A stretch of 64,000 bases of DNA from a virus (IMGVR_UViG_3300023070_000001:13102-77101), one strand, 5' to 3'. Counted from the stretch's first letter, positions 1,100-13,014 are shown. Numbers and translations: made by a program. The notes: a model not told the origin generated them from the sequence alone.

Positions 1100-1100
1100 G

Positions 1101-1174
1101 TAGAGCGAATGGGATTCGAACCCACATTTTCCAGATTGAAAGTCTGGCATCCTAAACCATTAGACGACCGCTCC
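1101..1174 (-). tRNA. tRNA-Glu(UUC)
   Basis: Cloverleaf; CCAGA-CT-TTC-AA-TCTGG anticodon arm; GGTTCGAATCC T-arm; CCA not encoded. Confidence 0.95.
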
Positions 1175-1240
1175 AGGCTGGCAAGAAAAATACTTTTATT
1201 GTTACGTCTGCCATTCGCAACCGCTAGATGTTGCGCAGAG

Positions 1241-1314
1241 TACTCCGTACGGGATTCGAACCCGTATTCTCTTCCTTGAGAGGGAAGCGAGATAAACCAT
1301 TACTCTAACGGAGC
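1241..1314 (-). tRNA. tRNA-Glu(CUC)
   Basis: Cloverleaf; CTTCC-CT-CTC-AA-GGAAG. Confidence 0.95.
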
Positions 1315-1318
1315 ATGT

Positions 1319-1362
1319 TGTAAGCGACTCTGTTTCCAGCTTTCGGGTGTCCGTCGCTTACA
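1319..1362 (-). ncRNA. Promoter-proximal stem-closed leader RNA L1
   Basis: TGTAAGCGAC...GTCGCTTACA closing stem with internal CTG-GAAA-CAG hairpin; ends 4 nt before tRNA-Glu(CUC). Confidence 0.6.
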
Positions 1363-1368
1363 AGTACT

Positions 1369-1397
1369 ACCTTACCTTAAAACTTTACCCCTGTCAA
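1369..1397 (-). promoter_or_regulatory. SigA/HrdB-type promoter P1
   Basis: TTGACA-N17-TAAGGT. Confidence 0.85.
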
Positions 1398-1399
1398 GC

Positions 1400-1888
1400 T
1401 CAGTAATCTGAAGAACTTGAACTAGATCCTGAATCTGAACTGCTTGAGCTAGATGATCCGCTATCTGAACTGTAGCTTGAAGAGTTACCTGAATCAGATG
1501 ATCCACTAGAGTAGTTAGATCCTGAATCAGAGCTGCTTGAAGAAGGTGCCTCATATGAGCTACTACGATCAGGCTCAGAGTAACCTGAATCAGAACCCCA
1601 GTAACCAAAGTCAGCAGGCTCAGATACGGCTACATAATCATCTGAGGGGGAGTCATCATACTTCTTACGAGGCTTCTCTACAACAGGCTTAGTACGGGTT
1701 ACAGGCTTGCGAGGCTCAGTAACGATATTACGGGAGGTATAAGCACTACCGGTATAGGTGTGAGGCTGTGAATACACAGATGCCTGCACCTTGTTAGGCT
1801 TACGACTCTTAGACTTAACTACCTTGTATACTACAAAGGCAATAATAGCAAGAGCTAGGATTACTAGAAGAAACTTCATGATTCTCAC
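1400..1888 (-). CDS. Membrane-anchored protein with Ser-rich low-complexity tail
   Basis: N-terminal hydrophobic helix followed by Lys residues; SSSSDSGS repeats at the C-terminus. Confidence 0.75.
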   Translation of the reverse strand: MRIMKFLLVILALAIIAFVVYKVVKSKSRKPNKVQASVYSQPHTYTGSAYTSRNIVTEPRKPVTRTKPVVEKPRKKYDDSPSDDYVAVSEPADFGYWGSDSGYSEPDRSSSYEAPSSSSSDSGSNYSSGSSDSGNSSSYSSDSGSSSSSSSDSGSSSSSSDY

Positions 1889-1920
1889 ATTCCGTGAAGG
1901 TTGTCTTACTTACTGACATT

Positions 1921-1949
1921 ATCCTAGCAGACTTGCTCTAGCGATGCAA
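1921..1949 (-). promoter_or_regulatory. SigA-type promoter
   Basis: TTGCAT-N17-TAGGAT with extended TG. Confidence 0.6.
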
Positions 1950-2270
1950 GCCTAGAGTTTCACGCTTCATCTCTTCAGTCATAATGCATTTAAGATCCTT
2001 GAATACCCAATTAGGTACCTTAACTCCATAGCAGACATCACCATCATAGTTAAGTGCCTCTACCCTGACCTTAATATGACCTTCAAGTAGGCCATCAGAA
2101 TCCTTGAAGGCGTGAAGAGCATAAAGCTTAGCCATCACAGTAGGAATCTCATCATAGTAGACTCTATACCATGAGCCTCTATTCTGCCAGATAGTACCTA
2201 AGCCATAAAAGTCAGTAAAGAATGCCAGCACTAAAGCAATTAGGGCTGTAATCCAAATCCAATCAGGCAC
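1938..2270 (-). CDS. Hypothetical membrane protein
   Basis: N-terminal TM (WIWITALIALVLAFF); GTG start overlapping the Nudix stop chosen. Confidence 0.65.
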   Translation of the reverse strand: MPDWIWITALIALVLAFFTDFYGLGTIWQNRGSWYRVYYDEIPTVMAKLYALHAFKDSDGLLEGHIKVRVEALNYDGDVCYGVKVPNWVFKDLKCIMTEEMKRETLGLHR

Positions 2271-2694
2271 AGTCGTAGAACCTACTTCCACCTGATGCTG
2301 CATTAAGAATGCGCTCTACAGTTGCAAAAATAGGCTTAGGTAGATTATAGATTGAATGCCACTTCCAGCTCTCTACCTTATCGGGCTCCATAACTTCAGG
2401 AACACCACCATCATAATAAGCTACCATACCAATATCGATATAGTGCTTGGGATAGTACTCGATGAGGTTGATTACTGAAACAACATGAAGACCACTGTAC
2501 TTTACACTAGAGCCAAGTTCCTCTTCAAGCTCACGCTCAGCACAAGCCTGGAAACTTTCATTAAATTCAAGGTGTCCCCCAGGAAGAGCCCACTGGCCTT
2601 CACCATGAGATCCCTTACGCTTACCCAGAAGAATACGATCCTCTCGGTCGATAAGTGCTACACCTACGCCAACCTTAGTAATGTTATCTGTCAT
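2263..2694 (-). CDS. Nudix hydrolase (MutT/NUDT15-like)
   Basis: Nudix box GGHLEFNESFQACAERELEEELG. Confidence 0.92.
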   Translation of the reverse strand: MTDNITKVGVGVALIDREDRILLGKRKGSHGEGQWALPGGHLEFNESFQACAERELEEELGSSVKYSGLHVVSVINLIEYYPKHYIDIGMVAYYDGGVPEVMEPDKVESWKWHSIYNLPKPIFATVERILNAASGGSRFYDCA

Positions 2695-2700
2695 GCTCTC

Positions 2701-2729
2701 ATCCTAGTAGAGTCACACAAGTCTGTCAA
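2701..2729 (-). promoter_or_regulatory. SigA-type promoter, leaderless Nudix mRNA
   Basis: TTGACA-N17-TAGGAT-N6-ATG. Confidence 0.85.
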
Positions 2730-2734
2730 GTAGA

Positions 2735-2760
2735 AAACCCACACCATCTGGTGTGGGTTT
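2735..2760. terminator. Intrinsic terminator hairpin
   Basis: AAACCCACACCA/TGGTGTGGGTTT 12-bp inverted repeat. Confidence 0.75.
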
Positions 2761-2765
2761 ATCAA

Positions 2766-2930
2766 TTATCCTTCGAACTTATATTTCTTGAAGGGTGAAT
2801 TTGAAGGCAACTTATCAAAAGCCTTGCGGGCCTTTTTTCTGTTATCTGTAGATGGCATACGAGCTGATGCCTCTGCTGCCCTTACAAATTCTTTCTCTTC
2901 TTTAGTTGTAGGCTCATGATCTGTTGGCAT
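2766..2930 (-). CDS. 54-aa basic microprotein (MPTDHEPTTKEEKEF...)
   Basis: Hand-translated; AGGAG RBS. Confidence 0.65.
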   Translation of the reverse strand: MPTDHEPTTKEEKEFVRAAEASARMPSTDNRKKARKAFDKLPSNSPFKKYKFEG

Positions 2931-2952
2931 TTAATTCTCCTAGAGTAATGGG

Positions 2953-3027
2953 TACCTGTAGTGGGACTCGAACCCACACTGAACGGATTTTAAGTCCGCA
3001 TCCTCTAACCGATTGGGATACACAGGC
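2953..3027 (-). tRNA. tRNA-Leu(UAA), short variable loop
   Basis: GCGGA-CT-TAA-AA-TCCGT; 5-nt variable region. Confidence 0.92.
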
Positions 3028-3058
3028 TTGATTGGCACTGTGTTAGCGCCAACGTTTA

Positions 3059-3214
3059 TCATAAAGTGAAATCGATGTGCCTTGTTTTACATTTGCAACT
3101 AGTGCAACCATTTTTGTCATGCTGACTACGCCCGTGGCCACAAGGCGGTGGACAGATTTTCTCTTTACGAGGGTAATCTAGTCTACCTTTGTCAGGCTTT
3201 TTAGGCTTAGTCAT
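3059..3214 (-). CDS. 51-aa Cys/His microprotein (CPPPCGHGRSQH...CTSCKC)
   Basis: Hand-translated; TAATG coupling with the upstream ORF. Confidence 0.65.
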   Translation of the reverse strand: MTKPKKPDKGRLDYPRKEKICPPPCGHGRSQHDKNGCTSCKCKTRHIDFTL

Positions 3215-3387
3215 TAGCTCTTGCCGCCTCTTAGATAATTTTCATACGCTGCAATAGCATTTTTTAAATTATCTCTAAGCTTCTTAGGGACAGGAACTCC
3301 ACGTTCCTTCTCTTCTTCTTTTGCTCTCATTAAAGCATCATTTGCTTTAACTACACTACGAGAATAAGCTTTTAACTTATCATCCAT
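3214..3387 (-). CDS. 57-aa helical microprotein, paralog of 3387-3536
   Basis: Hand-translated MDDKLKAYSRSVVKANDALMRAKEE...; TAATG coupling on both sides. Confidence 0.65.
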   Translation of the reverse strand: MDDKLKAYSRSVVKANDALMRAKEEEKERGVPVPKKLRDNLKNAIAAYENYLRGGKS

Positions 3388-3536
3388 TACGATTCATATT
3401 CCTTAATGGCATCTCTAAGTTCTTTAAGTACACTATCAGGTACTTGTTTCCCTTTCAGCCTTTTTTCTTTCCTAGCTTTTGCTACAGCAGCATCAGCGTC
3501 TTGCACTCTTTTCAGAGTATTAGCATTTTTGGGCAA
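3387..3536 (-). CDS. 49-aa helical microprotein
   Basis: TTG start after GAAAGA; MPKNANTLKRVQDADAAVAKARKE...AIKEYES. Confidence 0.6.
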   Translation of the reverse strand: MPKNANTLKRVQDADAAVAKARKEKRLKGKQVPDSVLKELRDAIKEYES

Positions 3537-3565
3537 AATAATTCTTTCTATTTTCAAAAATGATA

Positions 3566-3644
3566 TGGTTGAGGAACCGACGATCAGGCGTCAGACTTCT
3601 GTCCCGTAAGGGCAGTGTTCTGTCTACTCTTAAACTATTCCCCA
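3566..3644 (-). tRNA. Atypical tRNA-Val(UAC)-like gene lacking a canonical T-loop
   Basis: 7-bp acceptor TGGGGAA/TTCCTCA, A73, encoded CCA, anticodon loop CT-TAC-GG; T-arm loop GCCTGATC instead of TTCGA. Confidence 0.6.
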
Positions 3645-3646
3645 AG

Positions 3647-3721
3647 TACCGATGAAAGGATTCGAACCTTCAACATCCTGATTCTAAGTCAGGCACCTCT
3701 AGCCATTTGGGTCACATCGGC
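3647..3721 (-). tRNA. tRNA-Leu(UAG), short variable loop
   Basis: CCTGA-CT-TAG-AA-TCAGG. Confidence 0.92.
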
Positions 3722-3749
3722 ATAGCCCCGAAGGGCTTACTATTAATAA

Positions 3750-3947
3750 TTAAACTTCTTCTCTATCAACTTCGATAGTTACGTTAAGAACCTTGCCCTC
3801 ACGTACCCAAACTGGCTGCTCTCCCTGTCCACCAGCAGTGAACTTAAGGGTAGTATCGCCATCCTTAGCAGTGATTGCGCTCTGCCAATGGCCCTCATCA
3901 GCAGGCTTTGGCTTTACAGTAGCTACTGTAACATCTCGCATGAACAT
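3750..3947 (-). CDS. Hypothetical protein
   Basis: ORF track; plausible small beta protein. Confidence 0.6.
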   Translation of the reverse strand: MFMRDVTVATVKPKPADEGHWQSAITAKDGDTTLKFTAGGQGEQPVWVREGKVLNVTIEVDREEV

Positions 3948-3999
3948 TGTCTAGCTCCCATCGATATACCTGAATACGAACATCTAGTATATCGGCTGA

Positions 4000-4167
4000 C
4001 TAGCCATTCTTGTTGATAGCAGCAAGGACAGCTTTAGCATCTTGAAGTTCTTTCCTCAGAGCCTTTAGCTTCTTTGCATCTTTAGTAGTTAGCTTTTCAA
4101 CAGCGATCTTATTCATAATACGTTCAATAACACGTTCGGCATCAGTTCTAGTTGTAATCTTAGCCAA
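4000..4167 (-). CDS. 55-aa basic coiled-coil microprotein
   Basis: Start moved to TTG 4167 after AGGAG; the longer ORF overlaps a tRNA. Confidence 0.65.
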   Translation of the reverse strand: MAKITTRTDAERVIERIMNKIAVEKLTTKDAKKLKALRKELQDAKAVLAAINKNG

Positions 4168-4227
4168 TTGAATTACTCCTATGTCAGTTAAATACAGGGG
4201 TATGAGATGCGACCTCATACCCCTAAG

Positions 4228-4308
4228 TGCTCGTAACAGGAGTCGAACCTGCATACCTCTCGGCGTCACGTTCTAAGCGTGATGTGTATTCCGTTCCACC
4301 ATACGAGC
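4228..4308 (-). tRNA. tRNA-Leu(UAG), long variable arm
   Basis: TCACG-CT-TAG-AA-CGTGA; GCC-GAGA-GGT variable hairpin. Confidence 0.95.
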
Positions 4309-4315
4309 ATGAAAC

Positions 4316-4909
4316 CTATTTAAAATGATTCCTTACCTCTGCTACCTGAGTATTAAGATTTGCTACGGTAACAGTTAATTCTGATAGCTTAGCTACCGCC
4401 TTGTTCAACTCTACCAGACTAGCGGCCACCTTAGCAACCTCAGTAGATAACTTACTGATAGCTAAAAGATCCTCATCTACATAAGGCCAAGGGTGCTGTA
4501 CACCTAGTCTAGCATCTGGTAGGTACTGCTCGTAAGGGGCAACACCACTTGCGTTTTTGGTGAATACAGACCAAGAAGTGAAGGTACGCCCTGCACCCTT
4601 GAAGATTTCATATGCTGCGGCAGTATTTACTACAGGATCTCTCCATCTACCACCAGCAGCCTGAATCTTAGGATATTGCCAACGCCCTGAGAGCTGAAAG
4701 ATTCCATGATCTCTCTGCCCAATACTAGCAGGATCACTAGTAATAGGTGCAGTAGTACGAGAAATGGATTCTGTGTCTGCACTAGATTCGGCAAAAGCTA
4801 CCGCCACAGCAACAACAGCCTCGGTATCTGTTGTACCGGGTACAATTGTAGTTTTACTGAAGCCAGCCTTAATAACAAGGTCAGCAATTTCATGTGGTGA
4901 TAGCTTCAT
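4316..4909 (-). CDS. Lysozyme-like/lytic transglycosylase protein with C-terminal coiled coil
   Basis: AVAFAESS catalytic Glu, DHGIFQL and NTAAAYEI...WSVF motifs. Confidence 0.8.
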   Translation of the reverse strand: MKLSPHEIADLVIKAGFSKTTIVPGTTDTEAVVAVAVAFAESSADTESISRTTAPITSDPASIGQRDHGIFQLSGRWQYPKIQAAGGRWRDPVVNTAAAYEIFKGAGRTFTSWSVFTKNASGVAPYEQYLPDARLGVQHPWPYVDEDLLAISKLSTEVAKVAASLVELNKAVAKLSELTVTVANLNTQVAEVRNHFK

Positions 4910-4931
4910 AATTAGTCCTTAATTCAGAGAG

Positions 4932-5004
4932 CACCGGTTGCAAGAATCGAACTCGCACAGACGCGGGTTTGGAAGCCGCCGCACTACCATTATACTAAAC
5001 CGGC
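4932..5004 (-). tRNA. tRNA-Trp(CCA)
   Basis: Loop TT-CCA-AA, G73; C31.C39 mismatch. Confidence 0.85.
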
Positions 5005-5258
5005 ATTAATTCGGAGATTCAATAAGGAGGGTTGCGATCCCTCATATCATACTTACTTGCACTCCTAGGTTTGGTCAAGCCGCGCAAAGGACTTACGCTA
5101 GTCTCATCTGAACCCTAACAGATGACTCTGTCAAAATCAACAGACACCAAGTGTTCCAGGGGAAGCTCATGCTTCTCGTATACCCGCTCGCCTCGACGAG
5201 ACCCCTTGGATTACTATGATTCTAGTAGCTTGCATCAGAGGCTATCTAAAATCTTACG

Positions 5259-5330
5259 TGGCGGATACCTGAGTCGAACAGGTGATTTCAAGCTCATGAC
5301 GCTTGCGAGATACCACTTCTCCAATCCGCT
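5259..5330 (-). tRNA. tRNA-Met(CAU) with 1:72 mismatch
   Basis: CAAGC-GT-CAT-GA-GCTTG; A1.C72 unpaired. Confidence 0.85.
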
Positions 5331-5332
5331 AG

Positions 5333-5403
5333 TACCGAGTGATGGTAACGATCCATCTTCTATGCCTTATGAGAGCATCGTTCTACCTTTAAACTAACCC
5401 GGC
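5333..5403 (-). tRNA. tRNA-Met/Ile2(CAU) with atypical T-loop
   Basis: ATGCT-CT-CAT-AA-GGCAT; T-arm GATGG-ATCGTTA-CCATC. Confidence 0.8.
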
Positions 5404-5414
5404 CTGCTCCTACC

Positions 5415-5443
5415 AGCTTAGCAGAGCAGTTAAACCTTGTCAA
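5415..5443 (-). promoter_or_regulatory. SigA-type promoter for the CAU tRNA pair
   Basis: TTGACA-N17-TAAGCT. Confidence 0.85.
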
Positions 5444-5593
5444 CTACTTTGCCTTGTAGAATCCGCTGTTAGGATCTGAAATATGAGATTTATGAATCCA
5501 CTTACCACTTGCAATTCTTACAAGTTTATTAAGTGGTGTGGGTTTATGTCCACATGCTGCACAGTTAGCAGGTGCCTTCTTATCCGTCTTCAT
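5444..5593 (-). CDS. 49-aa Zn-binding microprotein (CAACGH...HKSH)
   Basis: Hand-translated; ATGA overlap with the upstream ORF. Confidence 0.6.
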   Translation of the reverse strand: MKTDKKAPANCAACGHKPTPLNKLVRIASGKWIHKSHISDPNSGFYKAK

Positions 5594-5787
5594 ACCAGCA
5601 AGTCTACAACAGGCTTATTGGTTGAGTCAAGCTTAGGCATTCCACCATACTGATCAGGATCAACGCCTGTCATTAATGCTATAGCAGATTCACTACTCCC
5701 GTCAAGGCGCTCAAGATGAACTTGTACCATGGAGTAGTAAGGTCCACAATAATCAGATAGACTCTCGCTTGAGTCGCTTTCTATCAT
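5590..5787 (-). CDS. Hypothetical protein (start uncertain)
   Basis: ORF track. Confidence 0.45.
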   Translation of the reverse strand: MIESDSSESLSDYCGPYYSMVQVHLERLDGSSESAIALMTGVDPDQYGGMPKLDSTNKPVVDLLV

Positions 5788-5902
5788 ACTTCTTCCTATT
5801 CTTATGCTTAGAAGATGCGTTAGAGCGGCGAAGTTCTAGGAGCTGACGTAGTTCCTCAGCATCCATCTTGCGCTTATAAGTTTGCATGTCAGCTCCCTTC
5901 AT
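5753..5902 (-). CDS. 49-aa basic microprotein (LRRSNASSKHKNRKKYDRK)
   Basis: Hand-translated; leaderless ATG 6 nt after the -10; alternative ATG at 5887 with SD. Confidence 0.7.
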   Translation of the reverse strand: MKGADMQTYKRKMDAEELRQLLELRRSNASSKHKNRKKYDRKRLKRESI

Positions 5903-5908
5903 GACTTC

Positions 5909-5937
5909 AATCTATCAGAGTAGGTCTGAGGTGTCAA
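5909..5937 (-). promoter_or_regulatory. SigA-type promoter (leaderless)
   Basis: TTGACA-N17-TAGATT-N6-ATG. Confidence 0.85.
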
Positions 5938-6122
5938 GCGTCGTAGTAATTATCGTTTCTAATATTTACATCGACTACAGAAATCAACTCTTGAGCACGA
6001 ACCTTAAAGCCCTCTAGCTCTGATCTCTTATACAGGCTGGCATTTTCAGTAATGTCTTTAATAACAAAGATTAGCTCGCTCATTAATTGAGCTACATAAG
6101 GTGTTGTGGATTCACTCATCAT
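5934..6122 (-). CDS. Hypothetical protein
   Basis: ORF track; coupled to neighbours. Confidence 0.6.
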   Translation of the reverse strand: MMSESTTPYVAQLMSELIFVIKDITENASLYKRSELEGFKVRAQELISVVDVNIRNDNYYDA

Positions 6123-6324
6123 CCTGCCATTCTACTACGGTCTTACCGCCATGACCGTGAATAATAATTACATCAGCAATACTTTTATAGAAACAGACAG
6201 AACTGGTAGATGTCATCCACCTCATAGCGCAGGAACCATCAGTAAACTGAACACCTTCAGTTACTATACCTACTCCTGAGATTCCTGTCTCATCATCTAA
6301 TCTACGGAGGTTGAATCTACGCAA
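6112..6324 (-). CDS. Small phage hypothetical protein (R.D.TG.SG.G...EGV.F.DG)
   Basis: RBS GAGGA; pattern recalled from widespread small phage proteins. Confidence 0.7.
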   Translation of the reverse strand: MRRFNLRRLDDETGISGVGIVTEGVQFTDGSCAMRWMTSTSSVCFYKSIADVIIIHGHGGKTVVEWQDDE

Positions 6325-6449
6325 GGTTCCTCTTCTTTCTTAGTATATTTATTAAACAGTTCTTGAAGCTCTTCATAAAGTTTCTGAACTTTATCCTTAT
6401 CTTCATCAGATAAGTTATCCCAATCTAGTACACCATCATCATTAGGCAT
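6297..6449 (-). CDS. 50-aa acidic microprotein (MPNDDGVLDWDNLSDEDK...)
   Basis: Hand-translated; fills the gap between two ORFs. Confidence 0.5.
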   Translation of the reverse strand: MPNDDGVLDWDNLSDEDKDKVQKLYEELQELFNKYTKKEEEPCVDSTSVD

Positions 6450-6717
6450 TTCTTGCCCTCATAACTACAATAAGCCATTCATCAGGATTATCCTGCTGTA
6501 GAAATACTAATTCCTCTACTGACAGATCCCTGGCTTCGAAATCATAATTAGCAGCTTCAGCCATACGCATAACCATCTCAGTACAATCTGATGTAATAAC
6601 TGCTTTAACTACTGCTACATCATCACTGAGGCAAGCCCAGATTTCACCACAAGCAAATCCCCTTGCAAATTCTGGGTCCTCAGAGTCAAATACCAAGAGG
6701 AATTCCTCAGAATCCAT
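6442..6717 (-). CDS. Hypothetical protein
   Basis: Start moved to ATG 6717. Confidence 0.6.
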   Translation of the reverse strand: MDSEEFLLVFDSEDPEFARGFACGEIWACLSDDVAVVKAVITSDCTEMVMRMAEAANYDFEARDLSVEELVFLQQDNPDEWLIVVMRARNA

Positions 6718-6736
6718 ACTCTTTTTGATTCCTCTA

Positions 6737-7063
6737 TTATCCTTGGATCTCATTAGATTCCGCCAATCTAATACCGTAATCTTGATATTTCTTAACAACC
6801 ATCCAGTGCATCTTATGCGTTACGCCTTCAGAAATCTCTGAGACCTTAATAAGTTCTACCAGCTCTGTAAGAAACATCGGATAGCATAAGCCAGTATCCA
6901 CATCTTTAAACCTGACTGCACTAGGCGCTAACCAACCATCCAATTTTAGCTTAGCGAGGAATGGAGTATTAGCTCTCCACTCTTCAGGTACTGCCCAGCG
7001 ATGAACAGACTTCATCAAATCGCCAGCTTCATTGTAAGGAACTTTGAAATTACCCTTTGGCAT
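6737..7063 (-). CDS. Hypothetical protein
   Basis: Start moved to ATG 7063 after AGAGG. Confidence 0.6.
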   Translation of the reverse strand: MPKGNFKVPYNEAGDLMKSVHRWAVPEEWRANTPFLAKLKLDGWLAPSAVRFKDVDTGLCYPMFLTELVELIKVSEISEGVTHKMHWMVVKKYQDYGIRLAESNEIQG

Positions 7064-7064
7064 T

Positions 7065-8003
7065 CTACTTAACCTCTTGGTGACATAGTGGGCATTGCCC
7101 TGCATTAGTTAATAGTTTGTGTAGTTCGGTTTCGATATCTGATATGGCATGATCTAGAGTATTTATTTGATCGACTAACTCTTGAATCTTCTTTGTAGCT
7201 AGGATAGCAGACTTTAGGGCAGCTTTAAAGCCTCTGAGTTGATCCTGCACCTCTACTAGCTCAGACATACTAGGAGGCTCTGGAATTATTCTAACCTTGC
7301 TGAGGGCATCTGAGGCTTGTTGTGCCCTATCTACAGAGCTAGCTAGGTTGAGTTGCCAAGCATTGATATCTGAAAGTTCCTCCCAGATATCCTCTACCTC
7401 AGTCATCGTGCTAGCCTGAGCTTTAATATCTGTATATTCAACAATCTGCTTCATTACTGCTTCCTGGTCCTTCTTACGCAGGTTCAGTAATGTAGATGCT
7501 GCCTTTGCTTTCTTACTAGCTTTACTAACTGCTGCAAAGATAGTAGAGACATTTGTCAATTCCCCTAGAATCCTTGCAGCATTGCTAGATGTCTCAGTCA
7601 ATAGATAAGGTGCATCATGTTGACTAGCGAAACTTATCGACTTTACTTCTTTTGTGCTCGGCGGGATACCAAGAACTTCTGTAACTTGGGAAGGTACTTG
7701 ACGATTAAGCTTAGTAAAGCTGGATTCTTTGCTACCAATCTCAGTAATCTTGTAAACACTAGATCCTCCTACGCTTCTTTCAATAGTTACTGTAGCATTA
7801 TCTGTGGTAACCGCTACAGATGCATGTTTAGTTCCTTGCATTATATTATCGGAGTTCAATGAATTACTAGCGATGGCCTCGATAGCTCTGATTAAAGCTG
7901 ACTTTCCACTACTAGATGCACCGACAATTACAGTAAACTTTCCCAGTTCAATTTCTACATCTTGTAGACTCTGGAAATTCTTACATGATATAGAGTGAAT
8001 CAC
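7065..8003 (-). CDS. SbcC/Rad50-like ATPase N-terminal half (Walker A, coiled coil, terminal zinc hook)
   Basis: NFQSL, IVGASSSGKSALIRA, coiled coil, CPLC at the C-terminus. Confidence 0.85.
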   Translation of the reverse strand: MIHSISCKNFQSLQDVEIELGKFTVIVGASSSGKSALIRAIEAIASNSLNSDNIMQGTKHASVAVTTDNATVTIERSVGGSSVYKITEIGSKESSFTKLNRQVPSQVTEVLGIPPSTKEVKSISFASQHDAPYLLTETSSNAARILGELTNVSTIFAAVSKASKKAKAASTLLNLRKKDQEAVMKQIVEYTDIKAQASTMTEVEDIWEELSDINAWQLNLASSVDRAQQASDALSKVRIIPEPPSMSELVEVQDQLRGFKAALKSAILATKKIQELVDQINTLDHAISDIETELHKLLTNAGQCPLCHQEVK

Positions 8004-8020
8004 TAATCCTCCATACGCTA

Positions 8021-8054
8021 AGAGCCACCGAACCCTGTTCAGGCTGGTGGCTCT
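8021..8054 (-). terminator. Hairpin/terminator
   Basis: AGAGCCACC/GGTGGCTCT inverted repeat. Confidence 0.6.
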
Positions 8055-8063
8055 AGTATAGCA

Positions 8064-8246
8064 TCATTTTGCTATGATGTAACCCTTGCCCTCGCAAGGT
8101 CCACAATCTACAGCAACAAATTTATCAGAAGACTTAATAAACTTAACGTCTTTAAGTTTAGCCCTTGGAACTAAAATCTTTCCATCTTTACATGCTAAGC
8201 ACGTAACTCTGGAACCCTTTAAGGGTTTAGGATACTTACTACTCAT
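8064..8246 (-). CDS. DnaJ-type Zn-finger microprotein
   Basis: CLACKDG...CGPCEGKG. Confidence 0.7.
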   Translation of the reverse strand: MSSKYPKPLKGSRVTCLACKDGKILVPRAKLKDVKFIKSSDKFVAVDCGPCEGKGYIIAK

Positions 8247-8254
8247 TTAATTCC

Positions 8255-8551
8255 TCAGACTACGAAGTATCGTTTACCCTTACAGCCCTTGCAAGTATCT
8301 TTAACTGCAAGTTCACCTGTCTTCTTGTTAGCAGGTCTGACAAGAACAATACCCTTACCTTTACAGCCAGCACAAGTGATTTTATCACCCTTTTTAACTG
8401 TAGGGTATTTATCTTTCTTAACTCGCTGAACTGCATTTGCAGTGTTTACGCCAGGACGCTTGACCCTAGCAATAATATCATAGCAATCCTTACATCGTAG
8501 ATTATCTTGCGCATCTACAAACATGTTAAGGCCGTGCTTTTTACACTCCAT
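8255..8551 (-). CDS. Two-module Zn-finger protein (CxxH...CxxC plus DnaJ-type)
   Basis: CKKHG...CKDC; CAGCKGKG...CKGCKGK. Confidence 0.7.
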   Translation of the reverse strand: MECKKHGLNMFVDAQDNLRCKDCYDIIARVKRPGVNTANAVQRVKKDKYPTVKKGDKITCAGCKGKGIVLVRPANKKTGELAVKDTCKGCKGKRYFVV

Positions 8552-8669
8552 TATTTTTAGGTTTTCCCTTAATATGATTTGGAGTTAGGGCTCTACCACA
8601 GTGATAACATCGAGTAATACCCTTAGTAATAATTATTCTTTCGCCATGTTGTTCACATTTTTTAGGCAC
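8541..8669 (-). CDS. 42-aa Zn-finger microprotein (CEQHG...CYHC)
   Basis: GTG 1 nt after the tRNA-Arg(UCU) discriminator; similar to the N-terminus of the next gene. Confidence 0.6.
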   Translation of the reverse strand: MPKKCEQHGERIIITKGITRCYHCGRALTPNHIKGKPKNNGV

Positions 8670-8670
8670 G

Positions 8671-8743
8671 TGCCCCAGGAGGGATTCGAACCCCCAACCT
8701 GACGGGTAGAAACCGCCTGCTCTATCCATTGAGCTACTGAGGC
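8671..8743 (-). tRNA. tRNA-Arg(UCU)
   Basis: GGCGG-TT-TCT-AC-CCGTC. Confidence 0.93.
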
Positions 8744-8891
8744 ATTAGTTAACAGGGTGCCAGCCCTGCTTTTACCATTACGGTCCCCAAGGTCTCCCGA
8801 CCCTGAATAACGAATGCTGGCACATAAGTTTTTGGCCAACCGTACTTGCTAGTTCCATACATACGGGAAGTATACTAGCACCCCACCTGCG

Positions 8892-8967
8892 TGATCCATG
8901 TAGGATTTGAACCTACGCACTTCGGATTAAAAGTCCGCTGCTCTATACCAGACTGAGCTAATGGATC
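8892..8967 (-). tRNA. tRNA-Lys(UUU)
   Basis: GCGGA-CT-TTT-AA-TCCGA. Confidence 0.95.
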
Positions 8968-9038
8968 ATTAAATGAAATTGTTGGGAAAGGCTATGCCCT
9001 TTATTCCAAGGGGATGTCTATGCCCATACAATTTCAAG

Positions 9039-9113
9039 TGGTTCATCTCGGATTCGAACCGAGGATCTTCGGATTAAGAGGCCGCTGCTTTAGCCAGGCT
9101 AAGCTAATGAACC
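9039..9113 (-). tRNA. tRNA-Lys(CUU), mismatched anticodon stem
   Basis: GCGGC-CT-CTT-AA-TCCGA (C31.U39, G27.A43). Confidence 0.9.
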
Positions 9114-9181
9114 ATACATGATTTATCCATCACCAACTTAGGGTGGCACCCGCTTTATAATGGATTCGTTCACAGACGAGG

Positions 9182-9258
9182 TGGTGGATCGAGTGGGATT
9201 CGAACCCACGACCAATGGATTAAGAGTCCACTGCTCTATACCGCTGAGCTACCGATCC
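9182..9258 (-). tRNA. tRNA-Lys(CUU), CCA encoded
   Basis: GTGGA-CT-CTT-AA-TCCAT. Confidence 0.96.
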
Positions 9259-9274
9259 ATAATTGCCTTTCAAG

Positions 9275-9345
9275 TACCCGGTGACAGAATCGAACTGCCG
9301 TCTGCACGGTGTAAACGTGCGGCCCTCCCATTAGACGAACCGGGC
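9275..9345 (-). tRNA. tRNA-Val(UAC)
   Basis: GCACG-TT-TAC-AC-CGTGC; A73. Confidence 0.9.
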
Positions 9346-9346
9346 T

Positions 9347-9709
9347 TGGTGCCGTGGAAATTTTCAGATCAGCAAGAGCTTAAGTTAACTGACCCTATAT
9401 TCTAGACCGCATTATCGTTACCCACAGCTATAACAATCTAGAAGCTTAGCATAAATCGTAACACGGACTCCCACCGTTAGTCTAGCACACTTTCCCAGAT
9501 CCAAGATTTATGTATGTTAGAGTACATCTAGCACATTAGCATTTAATTAGCGCCCACATGGACAAGTAACTTACTGTGTACTCTAAATCTGTAAGAGTAA
9601 AGTGAAAGGAATTGAACCTTTCCAGCGGGTGCCCCCAATTTGGCTTAGCCTTAGTACCATACCTAAGCAGGAATCGAACCTGTTACTGCCATTTACTTCA
9701 CTCTTTACG
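9347..9709 (-). ncRNA. ~360-nt structured non-coding insert between tRNA-Ala and tRNA-Val (tRNA-like modules)
   Basis: No minus-strand ORF of note; two TTC(G/A)ATT T-arm hairpins, several long stems, 3' CCACGGC-A-CCA. Confidence 0.55.
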
Positions 9710-9782
9710 TGGAACCGGACGGATTCGAACCGTCATCCTCCTGATTGCAAAACAGGCGCTCTACCGTTGGAGCTACGATCCC
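9710..9782 (-). tRNA. tRNA-Ala(UGC)
   Basis: G3.U70; loop TT-TGC-AA; U31.U39. Confidence 0.95.
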
Positions 9783-9786
9783 ATAA

Positions 9787-9844
9787 TGTAAGTGGGCCGT
9801 CACCGCCAGGTGTCTGAGCTATGTACTCAGGAACATCACTTACA
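9787..9844 (-). ncRNA. Promoter-proximal stem-closed leader RNA L2
   Basis: TGTAAGTG...CACTTACA; internal CTGAG/CTCAG and CACC/GGTG hairpins; ends 4 nt before tRNA-Ala. Confidence 0.6.
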
Positions 9845-9850
9845 TCTACT

Positions 9851-9879
9851 ACCTTACACCATGTCTTACAGGCTGTCAA
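9851..9879 (-). promoter_or_regulatory. SigA-type promoter P2
   Basis: TTGACA-N17-TAAGGT. Confidence 0.85.
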
Positions 9880-9887
9880 GTACTTAT

Positions 9888-10097
9888 TTAGTCCTCGTCA
9901 GCCATGTTGTCATCCCAGCACTTACTGTCAACACCCGTAATCAGAAGTTCACGAGTATCAGCGGATAGCCCAGGAAAGGCAACCTGCACAAACTCACCTG
10001 ATTTCCACTTGTTAAAGCCATCCTCAGGTAGGTCGATCTTCTTCGACTTACCACAGAACATACACTTCTTAGTGGTGTAGCTTACTGTCTTGGTCAT
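9888..10097 (-). CDS. Hypothetical Zn-binding protein (leaderless)
   Basis: CMFCG; ATG 6 nt after the -10. Confidence 0.7.
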   Translation of the reverse strand: MTKTVSYTTKKCMFCGKSKKIDLPEDGFNKWKSGEFVQVAFPGLSADTRELLITGVDSKCWDDNMADED

Positions 10098-10103
10098 GTA
10101 AGT

Positions 10104-10132
10104 AGCTTATCCTACTCTGTCAGATTCGTCAA
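10104..10132 (-). promoter_or_regulatory. SigA-type promoter (leaderless)
   Basis: TTGACG-N17-TAAGCT-N6-ATG. Confidence 0.8.
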
Positions 10133-10135
10133 GTA

Positions 10136-10255
10136 CTACAGGAGAGTACAGAAACCATCTTTACTCTTGTGACCAGGGCAACCTTGTGCCTTGCATCGAT
10201 ACTTGCCCTTGCGGTGTGCTCCACCCTTGGGCTCTTCCCTCTTATCTTTTGCCAT
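10136..10255 (-). CDS. 39-aa Cys/His microprotein (CKAQGCPGH...FC)
   Basis: Hand-translated. Confidence 0.5.
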   Translation of the reverse strand: MAKDKREEPKGGAHRKGKYRCKAQGCPGHKSKDGFCTLL

Positions 10256-10264
10256 GAGATGAGC

Positions 10265-10888
10265 TTACTCTACTGTGGAGCCTTCGTCAACGGGGTAGAC
10301 ATCATAAATCTTGAAGTTCTCATGAACCTTGCTAGCGGTAGGGCCGCTCTGGTTTTGGTAGTGCGAGCCAGCAAATCTAGATCCATAAAGAATAGTAGAT
10401 GGCTGAGGTAGCTTGAAAAAGCATAACTGAGCAATCTTCATTCCAGGATACAATAGGATTGGTGTAGTACCGTTATTAGATAATTCTAGTGTAACAGTTC
10501 CCTCAAACCCTGGATCGATAAAGCCAGCAGTCGAGTGAATTTGTAAACCTAATCTACCTAAACTTGACTTACCTTCACACCTTGCAGTTATATTAGCTCC
10601 TAAAGCAATAGCCTCATGAGTTGAAGCGAGAATAAAGCTATCAGGCTTTATCTCAATAGCTGAACCCTTGGGTACGGTAACAGCTTGGAAATGATTAGAG
10701 CTATCTACTTTAGGATCTATTACATCATTGAAGGCTAGGTAATCAGGGTGAGTACGCCTCTGTACTAAAAATTCGCAGCTCAGAGTTACATCATAACTAG
10801 ATGGCTGCATTAATTCAGGATGGAAGGGCTCTATGACAATATTGTCAAATCGCTTCTCTTCTAAGATATCTCTATTAGATAATAGCAC
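10265..10888 (-). CDS. dcd: dCTP deaminase
   Basis: QPSSYDVTL, EGKSSLGRLGLQIHSTAGFIDPGFEG, TLELSN. Confidence 0.95.
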   Translation of the reverse strand: MLLSNRDILEEKRFDNIVIEPFHPELMQPSSYDVTLSCEFLVQRRTHPDYLAFNDVIDPKVDSSNHFQAVTVPKGSAIEIKPDSFILASTHEAIALGANITARCEGKSSLGRLGLQIHSTAGFIDPGFEGTVTLELSNNGTTPILLYPGMKIAQLCFFKLPQPSTILYGSRFAGSHYQNQSGPTASKVHENFKIYDVYPVDEGSTVE

Positions 10889-10979
10889 TCATGTCTCCCC
10901 ATGAAAATAGAGACCTCATCGACAGGCACCATAAAAGGTCTCGGCTAAATACAGCACCCTAGAGCTTGGTCTCTATTTT

Positions 10980-11354
10980 CTATTTAGTATGGCCTGCTTG
11001 AATCATAAGTGTAGCAATATCTTGACCATCTGGCAAGGTTACTGACGCTAATGTTCTTCCCATAGTAAATCCATACGACACAAGAGAAACAATTGTCCCT
11101 TGAGGAATTATTGCTTTCAAGTATGAAGTAGCTAATTTAGAGCGGGCCTTATCCTTAGTCTCAGGAGCGTCATACCACCCGCCATCAGGTAATGTAATTC
11201 TGATAGAGCAGTGACCTGGCTCACCTTCATCTATAGGATAGATCCTAACACCCCAGCCTAAATCTAAATATTCCATAGTGAATGTATCACCATCATGAAC
11301 AGATTTTACTGGACCTACAGCTACACGGACTCGTGTCTTGCGTATTTCTGACAT
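10980..11354 (-). CDS. SNase/thermonuclease-like nuclease
   Basis: VHDGDTF, DAPET, GRTLA motifs; start moved to ATG 11354 after GGGAG. Confidence 0.8.
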   Translation of the reverse strand: MSEIRKTRVRVAVGPVKSVHDGDTFTMEYLDLGWGVRIYPIDEGEPGHCSIRITLPDGGWYDAPETKDKARSKLATSYLKAIIPQGTIVSLVSYGFTMGRTLASVTLPDGQDIATLMIQAGHTK

Positions 11355-11494
11355 AAAAATACTCCCATCTATGTGATAGGAGTATCGGTTAAATATAGTA
11401 GGCAGTCCTGAGAGCATAGCACTCTACCAATCGGGTTTCCTCTACACTTCTGTAAGGGCTTCAGACTTTTCTCTAGTGCTAGACCTACTATAAG

Positions 11495-11574
11495 AGCCCA
11501 TAAGCGGAATCGAACCGCAGACAATTAGACTCGTTTTGCAGACGAGCAGCAGCCACCAGCTACTTTTTATAGGC
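11495..11574 (-). tRNA. tRNA-Cys(GCA), atypical (A8, expanded variable loop)
   Basis: CTCGT-CT-GCA-AA-ACGAG; U73. Confidence 0.85.
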
Positions 11575-11705
11575 ATTAAAATAAGGCTCCCCCGCTAACG
11601 GCTGAGCGACGGAAACTTTCAAGGCATTAGCTTATCCGAATTCAGCATATCCTTGACCGCTAGGTTCCCTTATTTAAGATTTACCCTTATCTTGTAATCA
11701 TAAAG

Positions 11706-11780
11706 AGCCGTCAGTGTGGCTCGAACACACTACTCATCGCATACCAAGCGAGGGCTTTAACCTGATTAAGCTACGACGGC
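11706..11780 (-). tRNA. tRNA-Thr(GGU)
   Basis: Loop TT-GGT-AT; acceptor GCCGTCG/TGACGGC; U73. Confidence 0.9.
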
Positions 11781-11973
11781 AAAACCTAAGGATATCTATT
11801 TGTGTATTTGATATCAATCTGTTAAATAAAACCTACAGAATAACTTAGGTAGTTGTTGCAAAGATTATGGTCTCTGTCCTTAGCAGCTTTGTCAGAGACT
11901 TGCTGGGGATCGCTATAGCATACATAAGCCCTTCCCCTCCAGCGACATTATCCGGTCTGCATAATCTATTGCG

Positions 11974-12044
11974 AGCGGATAGCCGGGTTCGAACCGGCGA
12001 GAAATGATTGGAAATCACTTATGTTACCACTACATCATATCCGC
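11974..12044 (-). tRNA. tRNA-Gly(UCC)
   Basis: AGTGA-TT-TCC-AA-TCATT; U73. Confidence 0.93.
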
Positions 12045-12116
12045 ATAAACGGTTTTTCAGCGGCGTACTAGACGTGGTGGGACTTGCTCCGCTGAGCTGC
12101 AACCGAAAATCTCCCG

Positions 12117-12187
12117 AGCGACATAGGGGAATCGAACCCCTGTATACTGCATGGCAAGCAGTCGCACTACCATTGTGCTAATATCGC
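12117..12187 (-). tRNA. tRNA-Gly(GCC)
   Basis: ACTGC-TT-GCC-AT-GCAGT; U73. Confidence 0.95.
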
Positions 12188-12192
12188 ATCTT

Positions 12193-12378
12193 TCAATCTA
12201 GCAAAGTGCTAGAGCTTAAAAACATCCAAGCTTTAAATTCATTGCTTGTCATATTGTCTTCATCATGACGACGCTTCAATTCTAAAGCTGAGATACCCAT
12301 TCTGTCAAGCATATCTTTTACCAGAGAATCCCACTCGTCTTGAGTTAACTCAACTACATTAATAGGTTCATTACTCAT
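12193..12378 (-). CDS. Hypothetical protein
   Basis: ORF track; ATGA coupling. Confidence 0.65.
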   Translation of the reverse strand: MSNEPINVVELTQDEWDSLVKDMLDRMGISALELKRRHDEDNMTSNEFKAWMFLSSSTLLD

Positions 12379-12509
12379 ACTGTCCCCATATTTACCTTGC
12401 CTTTATTACACTTAGCATGGCACTTAAGTTCTTTCCATTTTCCAGGTTTTATTTCTTTTTGAATCACACCATAACCTTTACAGGTCTGGCACATTATCCA
12501 CTTGGCCAT
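12375..12509 (-). CDS. 44-aa DnaJ-type Zn-finger microprotein (CQTCKGYG...CHAKCNKG)
   Basis: ATG 1 nt after the tRNA-Asp discriminator; the longer ORF-track start overlaps the tRNA. Confidence 0.65.
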   Translation of the reverse strand: MAKWIMCQTCKGYGVIQKEIKPGKWKELKCHAKCNKGKVNMGTV

Positions 12510-12510
12510 G

Positions 12511-12583
12511 CGCTCCCGAGGGGAAGTCGAACCCCCACCTGTTGATTGACAATCAACTATGCTAACCTTTACACCACGAAAGC
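12511..12583 (-). tRNA. tRNA-Asp(GUC)
   Basis: GTTGA-TT-GTC-AA-TCAAC; G73. Confidence 0.95.
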
Positions 12584-12687
12584 TTGACTGGACCGATAGC
12601 TCTTCAGCATGTTTTGATTCTGCTAGATTGGAGCCTAGCATACTCTCCACAAATATAACACCTGCTCGGTCCTACACAGGCTTAATG

Positions 12688-12760
12688 TATCCACAAAGGG
12701 ATTTGAACCCCCGACCTCTTCGTTCGTAGCGAAGCGCTCTATCCACTGAGCTATGCGGAC
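12688..12760 (-). tRNA. tRNA-Arg(ACG)
   Basis: CTTCG-CT-ACG-AA-CGAAG. Confidence 0.95.
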
Positions 12761-12764
12761 TTGA

Positions 12765-12830: not shown

Positions 12831-12836
12831 AGTACT

Positions 12837-12865: not shown

Positions 12866-12871
12866 GTGGCT

Positions 12872-12977: not shown

Positions 12978-12983
12978 AATACT

Positions 12984-13012: not shown

Positions 13013-13014
13013 GC

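Follow-up and report, generated by a model that had tools for sequence, protein, structure and literature searches.

RNAC and RNAD of phage T4 (species 1 and 2) are matured from the same precursors as the T4 tRNAs, and T4 tRNAs encoded without CCA need both 5' and 3' processing by the host. In bacteria, the tRNA-operon by-products 3'ETS-leuZ and the internal spacers of metZWV act in trans as sponges of sRNAs, and in mitochondrial tRNA punctuation, as in the tRNA-miRNA units of murine gammaherpesvirus 68, tRNAs serve as cut marks that release the neighbouring RNAs. The function of RNAC and RNAD is still described as unknown (PMC9697503), and GOLLD and ROOL, ncRNAs of phages and prophages that occur recurrently beside or among tRNA genes, are likewise of unknown function (PMC12286853). 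In E. coli valV-valW, RNase P is modulated by a stable 5'-leader hairpin near the cleavage site, and the rate is set by leader pairing; cleavage is about 10-fold slower when a stable structure lies 2 nt from the site, pairing of the leader to the tRNA end inhibits strongly, and directional processing of polycistronic tRNAs is enforced by flanking stem-loops (PMC10731613).

Layout of the tRNA array and its junctions

The array analysed here lies in a 64,000-nt stretch of DNA (the window), whose source is an uncultured soil phage. Its minus strand carries 20 tRNAs between 1100 and 12760 (ARAGORN and Rfam), every one in the same orientation. The non-tRNA modules lie on that strand too, within the tRNA cluster and inside promoter-defined units, and a few tiny ORFs follow head to tail with the tRNAs and folded modules. 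ORFs in the array start immediately 3' of a tRNA C74, and the ATG of the 44-codon ORF 3' of tRNA-Asp adjoins the base following the discriminator. The features discussed below are, with z for fold stability relative to shuffled sequence:

12870–13013, minus strand: promoter P0 and its leader L0 of about 100 nt (12975–12870), repeat family D4; L0 z −3.58
12761–12866, minus strand: promoter PA and leader LA (12830–12761); z −2.75
12687–12760, minus strand: tRNA-Arg(ACG), called by ARAGORN and Rfam
12590–12672, minus strand: S1, 83 nt with a 7-bp closing stem, 6 nt before tRNA-Asp; trimmed z −2.77
12510–12583, minus strand: tRNA-Asp, called by ARAGORN
12045–12115, minus strand: S2, tRNA-Gly(GCC) to tRNA-Gly(UCC); z −0.29 whole, −1.57 trimmed; no homologue
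11781–11972, minus strand: S3, made up of S3a (11972–11853) and closed S3b (11852–11781); z −2.36
11575–11704, minus strand: S4, tRNA-Thr to tRNA-Cys; z −0.95 whole, −0.62 trimmed; no homologue
9783–9880, minus strand: promoter PB and leader LB; z −2.33
9590–9708, minus strand: S6a, two T-arm hairpins within a closing stem of 10–13 bp; z −3.17
9518–9589, minus strand: S6b, RNA of about 65 nt, its invariant 19-nt core TTACTTGTCCATGTGGGCG enclosed by a closing helix that covaries
9346–9517, minus strand: S6c, before tRNA-Val; z −0.26; shared only with the near-identical genome L015
9114–9181, minus strand: S8, between two tRNA-Lys(CUU) genes; z −1.59; 11 nt in its place in L015
8974–9036, minus strand: S9, 63-nt three-tier hairpin; z −3.28
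8744–8890, minus strand: S10 (structured part about 8750–8830), after tRNA-Lys(UUU), two hairpins with complementary loops
5005–5257, minus strand: S12, between tRNA-Met and tRNA-Trp; z −1.15
3028–3058, minus strand: 9-bp hairpin ending 3–4 nt before tRNA-Leu(UAA); z −4.30
1315–1398, minus strand: promoter PC and leader LC, closing stem ending 4–5 nt before tRNA-Glu(CUC); z −4.83
1175–1239, minus strand: S13, a weak hairpin between two tRNA-Glu genes; z −0.38 whole, −0.52 trimmed; no homologue

Among 222 tRNAs, 74% have A at −2, 72% have T at −1 and 96% have C immediately 3' of the discriminator. The next base is almost never C; the genes encode C74 only, without CCA. The pre-tRNA linker is short and A/U-rich, lacks G at −3 and ends in AU (−2, −1). 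As in RNase P substrates, the proximal leader is single-stranded, generally with U at −1, and lies upstream of a tRNA-type acceptor/T-arm; the junctions look built for tRNA-type processing, with cleavage predicted there. The published inhibition of RNase P by nearby structure and leader pairing is consistent with selection for a short unpaired linker with local sequestration of the RNA upstream. Hairpins at −5 would overlap the stretch reported to bind the RNase P protein, so that cleavage may be slowed rather than helped.

In Rfam 15 (GOLLD, ROOL, tmRNA, Y RNA/YrlA, phage sRNAs and riboswitches included), the gathering score was passed by tRNAs only, and no credible spacer match appeared at E up to 10. 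Decayed tRNAs were rejected as an identity for the spacers, none of which gave a tRNA-clan match at that E limit, and ARAGORN at 80–90% thresholds with introns allowed added none in them. A consensus scan for intrinsic terminators (a compact GC-rich hairpin plus U run) flagged none of the five stems considered below; its only matches in inter-tRNA spacers were a T-arm-like hairpin within S6a and a plus-strand site, and T content at −12 to −4 upstream of tRNAs is only 30–38%. Neither a transposase nor a homing nuclease gene was found alongside the modules in the window.

Fold stability and spacing across relatives

An earlier note on this DNA had proposed that most gaps between tRNAs fold into self-contained structures ending 4–6 nt before the next tRNA, and that the tRNAs are cut sites releasing a library of ncRNAs. 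The five stems it quoted are all present in minimum-energy folds at the distances given: 1179–1213 ends 4 nt before tRNA-Glu, 8974–9036 6 nt before tRNA-Lys, 11580–11674 5 nt before tRNA-Cys, 12050–12105 5 nt before tRNA-Gly and 12590–12672 6 nt before tRNA-Asp. When each interval was compared with 200 dinucleotide shuffles, 8974–9036 (z −3.28) and 12590–12672 (−2.77) proved unusually stable, whereas 1179–1213 (−0.52), 11580–11674 (−0.62) and 12050–12105 (−1.57) were no more stable than shuffles and had no homologue in relatives; these three examples are not supported. In the window, 15 tRNAs have 25 nt or more of non-coding sequence upstream; about 10 of these have a tail of 3–6 nt and about 6–7 one of 4–6 nt, so that "most gaps" is fair only with the looser range. 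Nor is self-containment enriched: 49% of spacers have an outer helix covering 70% or more of their length, versus 45% of shuffles.

At the level of the clade, the spacing geometry exceeds chance. We compared about 17 related phage genomes of about 136 kb, drawing spacing statistics from 113 tRNA-to-tRNA spacers of 30–200 nt at 19 loci. An unpaired tail of 4–6 nt was found in 42.5% of these spacers versus 20.9% of shuffles, and one of 0–1 nt in 9.7% versus 28%. The 4–6 nt tail was as frequent when the final 3 nt were kept fixed in the shuffles (43.5% versus 22.7%) and when one spacer was taken per sequence cluster (43.6% over 57 clusters, p about 3e-4); at least 2 nt were unpaired in about 90% of spacers.

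As a population, the spacers have a mean z of −1.5, with 30–35% below −2 versus the few per cent expected. Those holding a small ORF have z of about −0.1, and Gly-to-Gly spacers in all relatives are unstructured as a class (median z −0.3). Singletons, that is, unique and non-conserved spacers (n=35), have a mean z of −1.53 and are on average structured like conserved ones, and the 4–6 nt tail is equally frequent in them. Because singletons are as structured as conserved spacers, a generic role in cis fits no less well than a functional RNA library does. In the window, whole-spacer z is significant for the four promoter leaders, S3, S6a, S9 and the hairpin before tRNA-Leu(UAA), and not for S1, S2, S4, S5, S6c, S8, S10, S12 and S13; about half of the window's spacers equal shuffles in fold energy. 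"Library" thus overstates a mixed population, since shuffle-like folding and lack of conservation hold for only some spacers and clearly not for others.

Conserved modules, promoter leaders and cassette turnover

The expectation that structures would be conserved in relatives was borne out by covariation for real structured RNAs and failed for S2, S4 and S13, which have no homologue. S9, separated by 1 nt from the preceding tRNA-Lys(CUU) and by 6 nt from the following tRNA-Lys(UUU), has double changes in 7 of 18 pairs and belongs to a multi-copy family: its model (R1) identified 8 copies spread over 4 genomes, L011 alone having four, and the copies, up to four per genome, have different stems, the same core and conserved loops. 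S6b has double changes in 8 of 18 pairs, and its model (R2) detected a single copy at each of 13 clade loci and further matches in L029, L025/L030 and L031. The 19-nt core recurs in unrelated phage contigs and MAGs, where the closing stems differ. In a Lachnospiraceae MAG it sits between two tRNAs; in other phages S6b lies away from tRNAs in replication modules, flanked by VapE-like and SNF2 helicase genes or following PD-(D/E)XK/AAA_24 and DUF669 genes. The role of S6b therefore cannot depend on an adjacent tRNA. The distant copies had no match in Rfam.

In S10, 12 of 13 copies keep the upstream loop (about 8822–8817) complementary to the loop of the 3' hairpin (8768–8753), and there is one compensatory double change. 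Its 3' part (8776–8751) is nearly invariant in the clade and ends 7–9 nt before tRNA-Arg(UCU); whole-spacer z is only −1.28. S6a starts 4 nt 3' of tRNA-Ala and occurs in 5 genomes, with its closing stem altered on both strands. It was rejected as a tRNA, having an acceptor-like stem but no anticodon arm and no call by ARAGORN (relaxed) or Rfam; it carries a tRNA-like module on a long stem. It had no Rfam Y-RNA match, and no TROVE (Ro60) match was found in the 77 kb of a record only about 57% complete. S1, whose z is unremarkable when taken as a whole spacer, has a conserved inner hairpin loop and one clear compensatory pair in that hairpin, and its homologues in L019 and L008/L023 likewise lie 6 nt before tRNA-Asp. 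The 3' 148 nt of S12 are conserved in L008/L023, there upstream of a different tRNA, Leu-CAA, and probably contain a promoter, placed by eye.

The leaders follow sigma-70-like promoters (TTGACA, 17-nt spacer, TAAGGT) and, as the earlier note held, share the geometry of the spacers before tRNAs. L0 has a long closing stem, is followed by the next promoter rather than by a tRNA, and is kept in 4 genomes with compensatory changes in its inner hairpins. The closing stem of LA (GTAAGCGA/TCGCTTAC), whose transcription start we infer from the position of the −10 element, ends 4 nt 5' of tRNA-Arg(ACG); that of LB (TGTAAGTG/CACTTACA), a compensated variant of the stem of the leader family, ends 3–4 nt before tRNA-Ala. 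In 26 distinct leaders, stem positions 4–11 show alternative pair types, and the tail is 2–5 nt in 23. The closing stem alone is kept; the interiors are hypervariable, and the distance between arms ranges from about 25 to 90 nt. Judged by compensatory changes and comparison across relatives, S9, S6b, S10, S6a and the leaders are conserved structured RNAs outside Rfam.

Between close relatives, spacers are exchanged or lost as whole cassettes. L015 has an unrelated 55-nt spacer in place of S1 and an unrelated 70-nt spacer in place of S2 (which holds the 12050–12105 stem), and lacks S3b as a unit, a clean 72-nt presence/absence difference. Around these swaps (S1, S2) and presence/absence differences (S3b, S8), the flanking genes are 95–99% identical. 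S5 has chance-level z and no homologues were found in relatives.

A proposed processing model, alternatives and known systems

We lean, with somewhat better than even confidence, towards polycistronic tRNA operons where hairpins formed locally leave RNase P a minimal landing site and compact RNAs are excised, a subset of them functional. The sigma-70-like promoters would launch the operons from the predicted starts, and the short single-stranded A/U-rich linker before each tRNA would be the probable landing site. Holding the RNA upstream in a local hairpin would leave about 4–6 free nt and prevent pairing between spacer and tRNA. Because the tRNA genes have C74 and no CCA, 3' maturation should also be endonucleolytic, and the spacers would be cut out as compact hairpins with tails too short for a 3' exonuclease to grip. 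We infer each of these elements, namely the cuts by RNase P and by an endonuclease at the 3' end, RNA stability and function in trans. A search for RNA runs containing this sequence found none. For S6a, S6b, S9, S10, S1, L0 and the leader frame, an independent role as stable RNAs is probable; S2, S4, S13 and S6c are fast-turnover filler, as are, probably, S5 and S8. Processing of tRNAs cannot by itself free L0, S6a-S6b-S6c or one S9 copy in L011, since each lacks a tRNA on at least one side.

Much of this would also be expected if the hairpins acted purely in cis, insulating tRNA folding, setting the order or rate of RNase P cleavage, shielding a long untranslated transcript from 3' exonucleases and Rho, and protecting 5' triphosphate ends, with the excised pieces as waste. 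Structure and the 4–6 nt tail are just as common in unique spacers, leaders retain only their closing stem, modules are freely swapped or lost among close relatives, and flanking stem-loops are known to direct RNase P on polycistronic tRNAs (PMC10731613). We nonetheless consider this alternative, which deserves serious weight, unlikely: the S6b core, the S9 and S1 loops and the S10 loop-loop pairing exceed the needs of an insulating hairpin, S6b lies between replication genes away from tRNAs in other phages, and S9 keeps one core on different stems in up to four copies per genome. That most spacers are neutral remains, whether decayed tRNAs, scars of recombination or filler, with the geometry a by-product of base composition and the 3-nt junction motif, would suit the chance-level z and lack of homologues of S2, S4, S13, S5 and S6c (the last apart from L015), the unstructured Gly-to-Gly class and closed folds no commoner than in shuffles. 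As a general account it is very improbable, and S6a, S6b, S9, S10 and the leaders already contradict it, because the tail enrichment survives both the fixed last 3 nt and cluster correction, z falls below −2 far more often than expected, compensatory changes occur in multiple families and no spacer scores as a degenerate tRNA (Rfam E up to 10; ARAGORN relaxed).

Presence, absence or replacement of whole modules between near-identical genomes, the multiple copies of S9 and the location of S6b within replication modules of other phages could also reflect stems working as DNA, as mobile palindromes, recombination or nuclease targets or origin-like hairpins inserting beside tRNAs. In S9, S6b and the leaders, however, arm sequences vary with complementarity kept, which points to selection on pairing rather than to a protein recognition site; leader arm spacing is variable, the modules all lie on the tRNA strand inside promoter-defined units and neither transposase nor homing nuclease accompanies them, making a DNA-level role hardly credible. 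A bolder extension of the processing model, to which we give only a small chance, is a cassette system with a fixed frame of promoter, closing stem, short linker and tRNA cut site, and swappable structured inserts that the tRNA-processing enzymes of the host would release in bulk as decoys or inhibitors. If so, the phage population would shuffle RNA inserts like accessory genes, and the inserts would block host RNA-binding or tRNA-targeting defence or processing proteins; candidates would include the two-T-arm tRNA mimic S6a and the S6b core common to unrelated phages.

Among known systems, GOLLD and ROOL differ in being multimeric cages of 500–800+ nt, whereas the modules here are 35–150 nt, and neither family appeared in the Rfam scan. 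3'ETS-leuZ and metZWV embody the mechanism that the earlier note proposed for the phage spacers; they are released by RNase E and pair with known sRNAs, unlike the phage modules, which have no known target or Hfq-type features. In valV-valW the effect is kinetic and concerns a few host operons, whereas here the spacing is statistical and clade-wide, and several hairpins have conserved sequence. The array resembles mitochondrial and gammaherpesvirus punctuation in that its ORFs begin directly after a tRNA end; those systems are organellar or eukaryotic and use other enzymes, so the parallel is in how the array works and not in ancestry. The T4 tRNA cluster likewise holds small non-tRNA RNAs on the same strand within it. 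The modules here, known from sequence alone, have no sequence or Rfam relationship to the T4 RNAs and are far more numerous, several forming clade-wide families, with a spacing rule and cassette-like turnover.

Organization of the tRNA array and its junctions

The window belongs to a 77-kb IMG/VR virus record (~57% complete), and ARAGORN and Rfam identified in it 20 tRNA genes at 1100-12760, with five further tRNAs past the window start. Because all these genes lie on the minus strand, upstream of a tRNA 5' end means higher window coordinates. Interspersed with the tRNAs are small ORFs (dCTP deaminase, thermonuclease-like, NUDIX, SbcC-like ATPase and lysozyme-like), and non-coding spacer in the array totals ~1.9 kb. 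A single promoter module, located by regular expression and consisting of TTGACA, a 17-nt spacer, TAAGGT and then a conserved initial transcribed sequence, is present in four copies heading units at 13013, 12866, 9880 and 1398. Using the thermonuclease-like ORF within the array, we gathered ~17 related genomes of ~136 kb from soil and other metagenomes, across which tRNA order is syntenic. Megablast found no near-identical cultured phage, its matches being single tRNAs only, and, judged by DNA polymerase, Microbacterium phage Magritte (37% identity) is the closest cultured relative. A sequencing-run search returned no RNA run with the sequence, the sole row being a wastewater run with 5% of sampled words.

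The tRNA region of the relatives also carries an Acb5-family (PF26761) gene (related loci L005 16422-16727, L006 16456-16725, L007 16580-16867 and others) together with RNA ligase (PF09414), NUDIX and SLT_3 genes, and this content suggests an accessory or counter-defence island; the RNA ligase that adjoins the array in relatives was not found in the ~57% complete 77-kb record. Among Rfam models, the 81-nt tRNA-Cys of the window (11494-11574, minus strand) is matched best by that for selenocysteine tRNA (40.9 bits, below the cut-off of 47) and not by the general tRNA model. In many relatives (L005 ~8690-8770, L006 ~8040-8120, L018 ~2655-2740 and others), a tRNA-like gene missed by ARAGORN replaces the canonical tRNA-Arg(ACG) after the first leader of the array, with an acceptor stem, an ACG anticodon loop, almost no D arm, a normal T arm and an enlarged variable region with a D-loop-like AGTTGG.

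The junctions of 222 distinct tRNAs carry A at -2 in 74% and T at -1 in 72%, with G hardly ever present at -3. On the 3' side, C follows the discriminator in 96% and the base after that is a C in 1%, so that C74, and not CCA, is gene-encoded. Cuts by RNase P at +1 and by a 3' endonuclease at or next to the discriminator, our presumed enzymes, would match these junctions. Since two window ORFs, following tRNA-Asp and tRNA-Glu-UUC, have their ATG immediately 3' of the post-discriminator C (12507-12509 and 1097-1099, minus strand), tRNA 3' processing could make leaderless mRNAs from them.

Fold stability and tail length of the spacers

The earlier note had described most spacers between tRNAs as self-contained structures with a closing stem ending shortly before the next tRNA. 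The five stems that it quoted all fold as stated, with tails (unpaired nt between the spacer fold and the next tRNA 5' end) of 4-6 nt.

Quoted stems, with z (fold energy relative to 200 dinucleotide shuffles; the intervals were cut down to the stems, so that z is biased in their favour)
8974-9036: tail 6 nt, z -3.28
12590-12672: tail 6 nt, z -2.77
12050-12105: tail 5 nt, z -1.57
11580-11674: tail 5 nt, z -0.62
1179-1213: tail 4 nt, z -0.52

Stability against shuffles backs 8974-9036 and 12590-12672, and part of the evidence in the earlier note amounts to folding at chance level. When every spacer (S1-S13, with letters for sub-parts) was folded whole, clear excess stability was observed for the four promoter-launched leaders (z -2.3 to -4.8), S3 (11972-11781), S6a (9708-9590), S9 and a 9-bp hairpin preceding tRNA-Leu(UAA), with none in S1, S2, S4, S5, S6c, S8, S10, S12 and S13.

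For the analysis of geometry, spacers between two tRNAs were taken from these genomes if 30-200 nt long; the resulting 113 have a mean z of -1.5, with 35% below -2. Tails of 4-6 nt occur in 42.5% of them compared to 20.9% of shuffles, and tails of 0-1 nt in 9.7% compared to 28%. The 4-6 nt tail persisted with the last three bases held fixed (43.5% versus 22.7%) and when each of 57 sequence clusters was counted once (43.6%, p ~3e-4); moreover, 35 spacers without any relative showed the same structure and tail behaviour as the rest. Asp-to-Gly spacers holding a small ORF, an internal control, have z near 0, and Gly-to-Gly spacers, including 12050-12105, have no structure in any relative. An outer helix enclosing most of the spacer shows no enrichment (49% versus 45% of shuffles), so 'stem-closed' does not describe the spacers in general: their general property is a short free tail. 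The earlier observation is confirmed in part, for stems and short tails and not for general stem closure, and its interpretation, release of a library of non-coding RNAs at tRNA cut sites, is supported in part.

Conserved RNA modules among the spacers

About 40% of spacer bases fall in RNA families conserved past the nearest relative and without an Rfam entry, the spacer population being a mixture of widely conserved, patchily conserved and unconserved sequences. Covariation across related phages, which the earlier note had proposed as a check, was found for S6b, S10, S6a, the leaders and S9; S2, S4, S13, S6c, S3a and S12a are, among relatives, not conserved past near-identical L015.

S6b has an invariant 19-nt core and double compensatory changes in 8 of 18 pairs, and our model of it (R2) found one copy in each of 13 clade loci. 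Its core is also present in contigs of unrelated phages and, within prophage-like regions, in MAGs; these distant copies share a downstream hairpin and each has a different closing stem.

Copies of S6b
Window 9518-9589, minus strand
L025 3975-4068, minus strand
L028 1522-1608, plus strand
L029 1219-1294, minus strand
L030 6881-6974, minus strand
L031 3490-3588, minus strand
L032 6348-6440, plus strand

In an exact 19-mer search of bacterial genomes the number of matches was close to chance expectation, and matches were counted only if their flanks shared the motif and had a closing stem (L029, L030, L031 and L032; L033 was excluded); closing stems of distant copies were judged by single folds and R2, not by MAFFT alignment. 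In a Lachnospiraceae MAG the core sits between two array tRNAs, 7 nt off each, and other copies lie in replication modules (VapE-like/SNF2; PD-(D/E)XK-AAA_24, DUF669). None of the distant copies matched Rfam, and S6b could represent an unnamed RNA widespread in phages, or else an ssDNA motif.

In S10, 3' of tRNA-Lys-UUU, the 3' hairpin hardly varies, and its loop is complementary to that of an upstream hairpin in 12/13 copies (counted by script), the single variant being altered on both sides.

Loops of S10
~8822-8817, minus strand: upstream hairpin loop, conserved as GUGCCAGCA
~8768-8753, minus strand: 3' hairpin loop, the complement

The upstream loop has a 9-nt identity to what we take to be positions 515-523 of 16S rRNA (helix 18, 530 loop), possibly a coincidence. 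S6a, which resembles a tRNA and has two T-arm hairpins, occurs in five genomes with a compensated closing stem; an L020 segment was rejected as a homologue, and a TROVE gene, sought for a Ro60/Y-RNA parallel, is absent from the ~57% complete 77-kb record.

In 26 distinct leaders, a 5' arm beginning at the inferred transcription start pairs with a 3' arm, which in 23 of them leaves 2-5 nt to the tRNA, with alternative pair types at positions 4-11 and mutually unrelated interiors of 25-90 nt; leader L0 is present in four genomes. S9 (model R1; eight copies in four genomes) keeps its core, and its outer stem varies in almost every copy and always pairs. S1 recurs at three other loci (L008 and L023 near-identical), always with tRNA-Asp 6 nt downstream, and in another genome the 3' half of S12 stands before a different tRNA. 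The window lacks a further conserved non-coding block, which lies between tRNA-Ala and tRNA-Val in L005 (~13000-13170), L007, L008, L009 and L012; in this block, a segment containing a C-box-like UGAUGA precedes a promoter-like TTGACA...TATAGT and a hairpin. Rfam and relaxed ARAGORN searches led us to reject decayed tRNAs or tmRNA as the origin of the spacers, a 650-nt stretch called as 'permuted tmRNA' under relaxed settings being spurious; the stems were also rejected as terminators.

Comparison with L015, whose flanking genes are 95-99% identical to those of the window, revealed turnover of cassettes. L015 has unrelated sequence at the S1 and S2 positions and lacks S8 (68 nt reduced to 11 nt), the closed module S3b (an exact absence) and one small ORF, with S6 and S9 97-100% identical. 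Recombination, a step that we infer, was probably anchored in the conserved tRNAs and leader frames.

Spacing rule, probable functional RNAs and known systems

We favour a two-tier reading of the spacers, as an architectural rule plus a subset of probably functional RNA families. In the first tier, local folding of spacer RNA would leave a short A/U-rich linker free before each tRNA, which fits published RNase P behaviour, cleavage being slowed about 10-fold by structure 2 nt from the site and strongly inhibited by leader pairing with the tRNA end (PMC10731613); each spacer would consequently be released from the precursor as a compact hairpin whose tails do not exceed 7 nt. In the second tier, a subset of modules would be RNA families under selection for sequence as well as structure and, for that reason, probably functional after release. 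The main rival, a purely cis-acting role of spacer structure, is favoured by unique spacers being as structured as conserved ones, but the invariant cores of the modules and the occurrence of S6b without tRNAs argue against it. These results speak neither for nor against the decoy or sponge role originally proposed.

Annotations of phage tRNA clusters usually list the tRNAs and treat the rest as junk. Because S6b extends well beyond the phage clade and the spacing before tRNAs is a measurable rule, the conserved modules and this rule make testable both the purpose of T4-type 'stable RNAs' in tRNA operons and the way in which dense polycistronic precursors have their leader structure tuned to RNase P. 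In having a conserved frame whose inserts can be swapped, the array also parallels, as a natural system, engineered tRNA-guide-RNA arrays. More than ten thousand candidate viral RNAs have been catalogued, with no such tRNA-spacer RNA arrangement described in the part consulted (PMC10690425). The spacer RNAs of the array find their nearest precedent in RNAC and RNAD of the T4 tRNA cluster, whose function has yet to be established (PMC9697503), and GOLLD and ROOL illustrate how phage tRNA islands attract further non-coding RNAs (PMC12286853).
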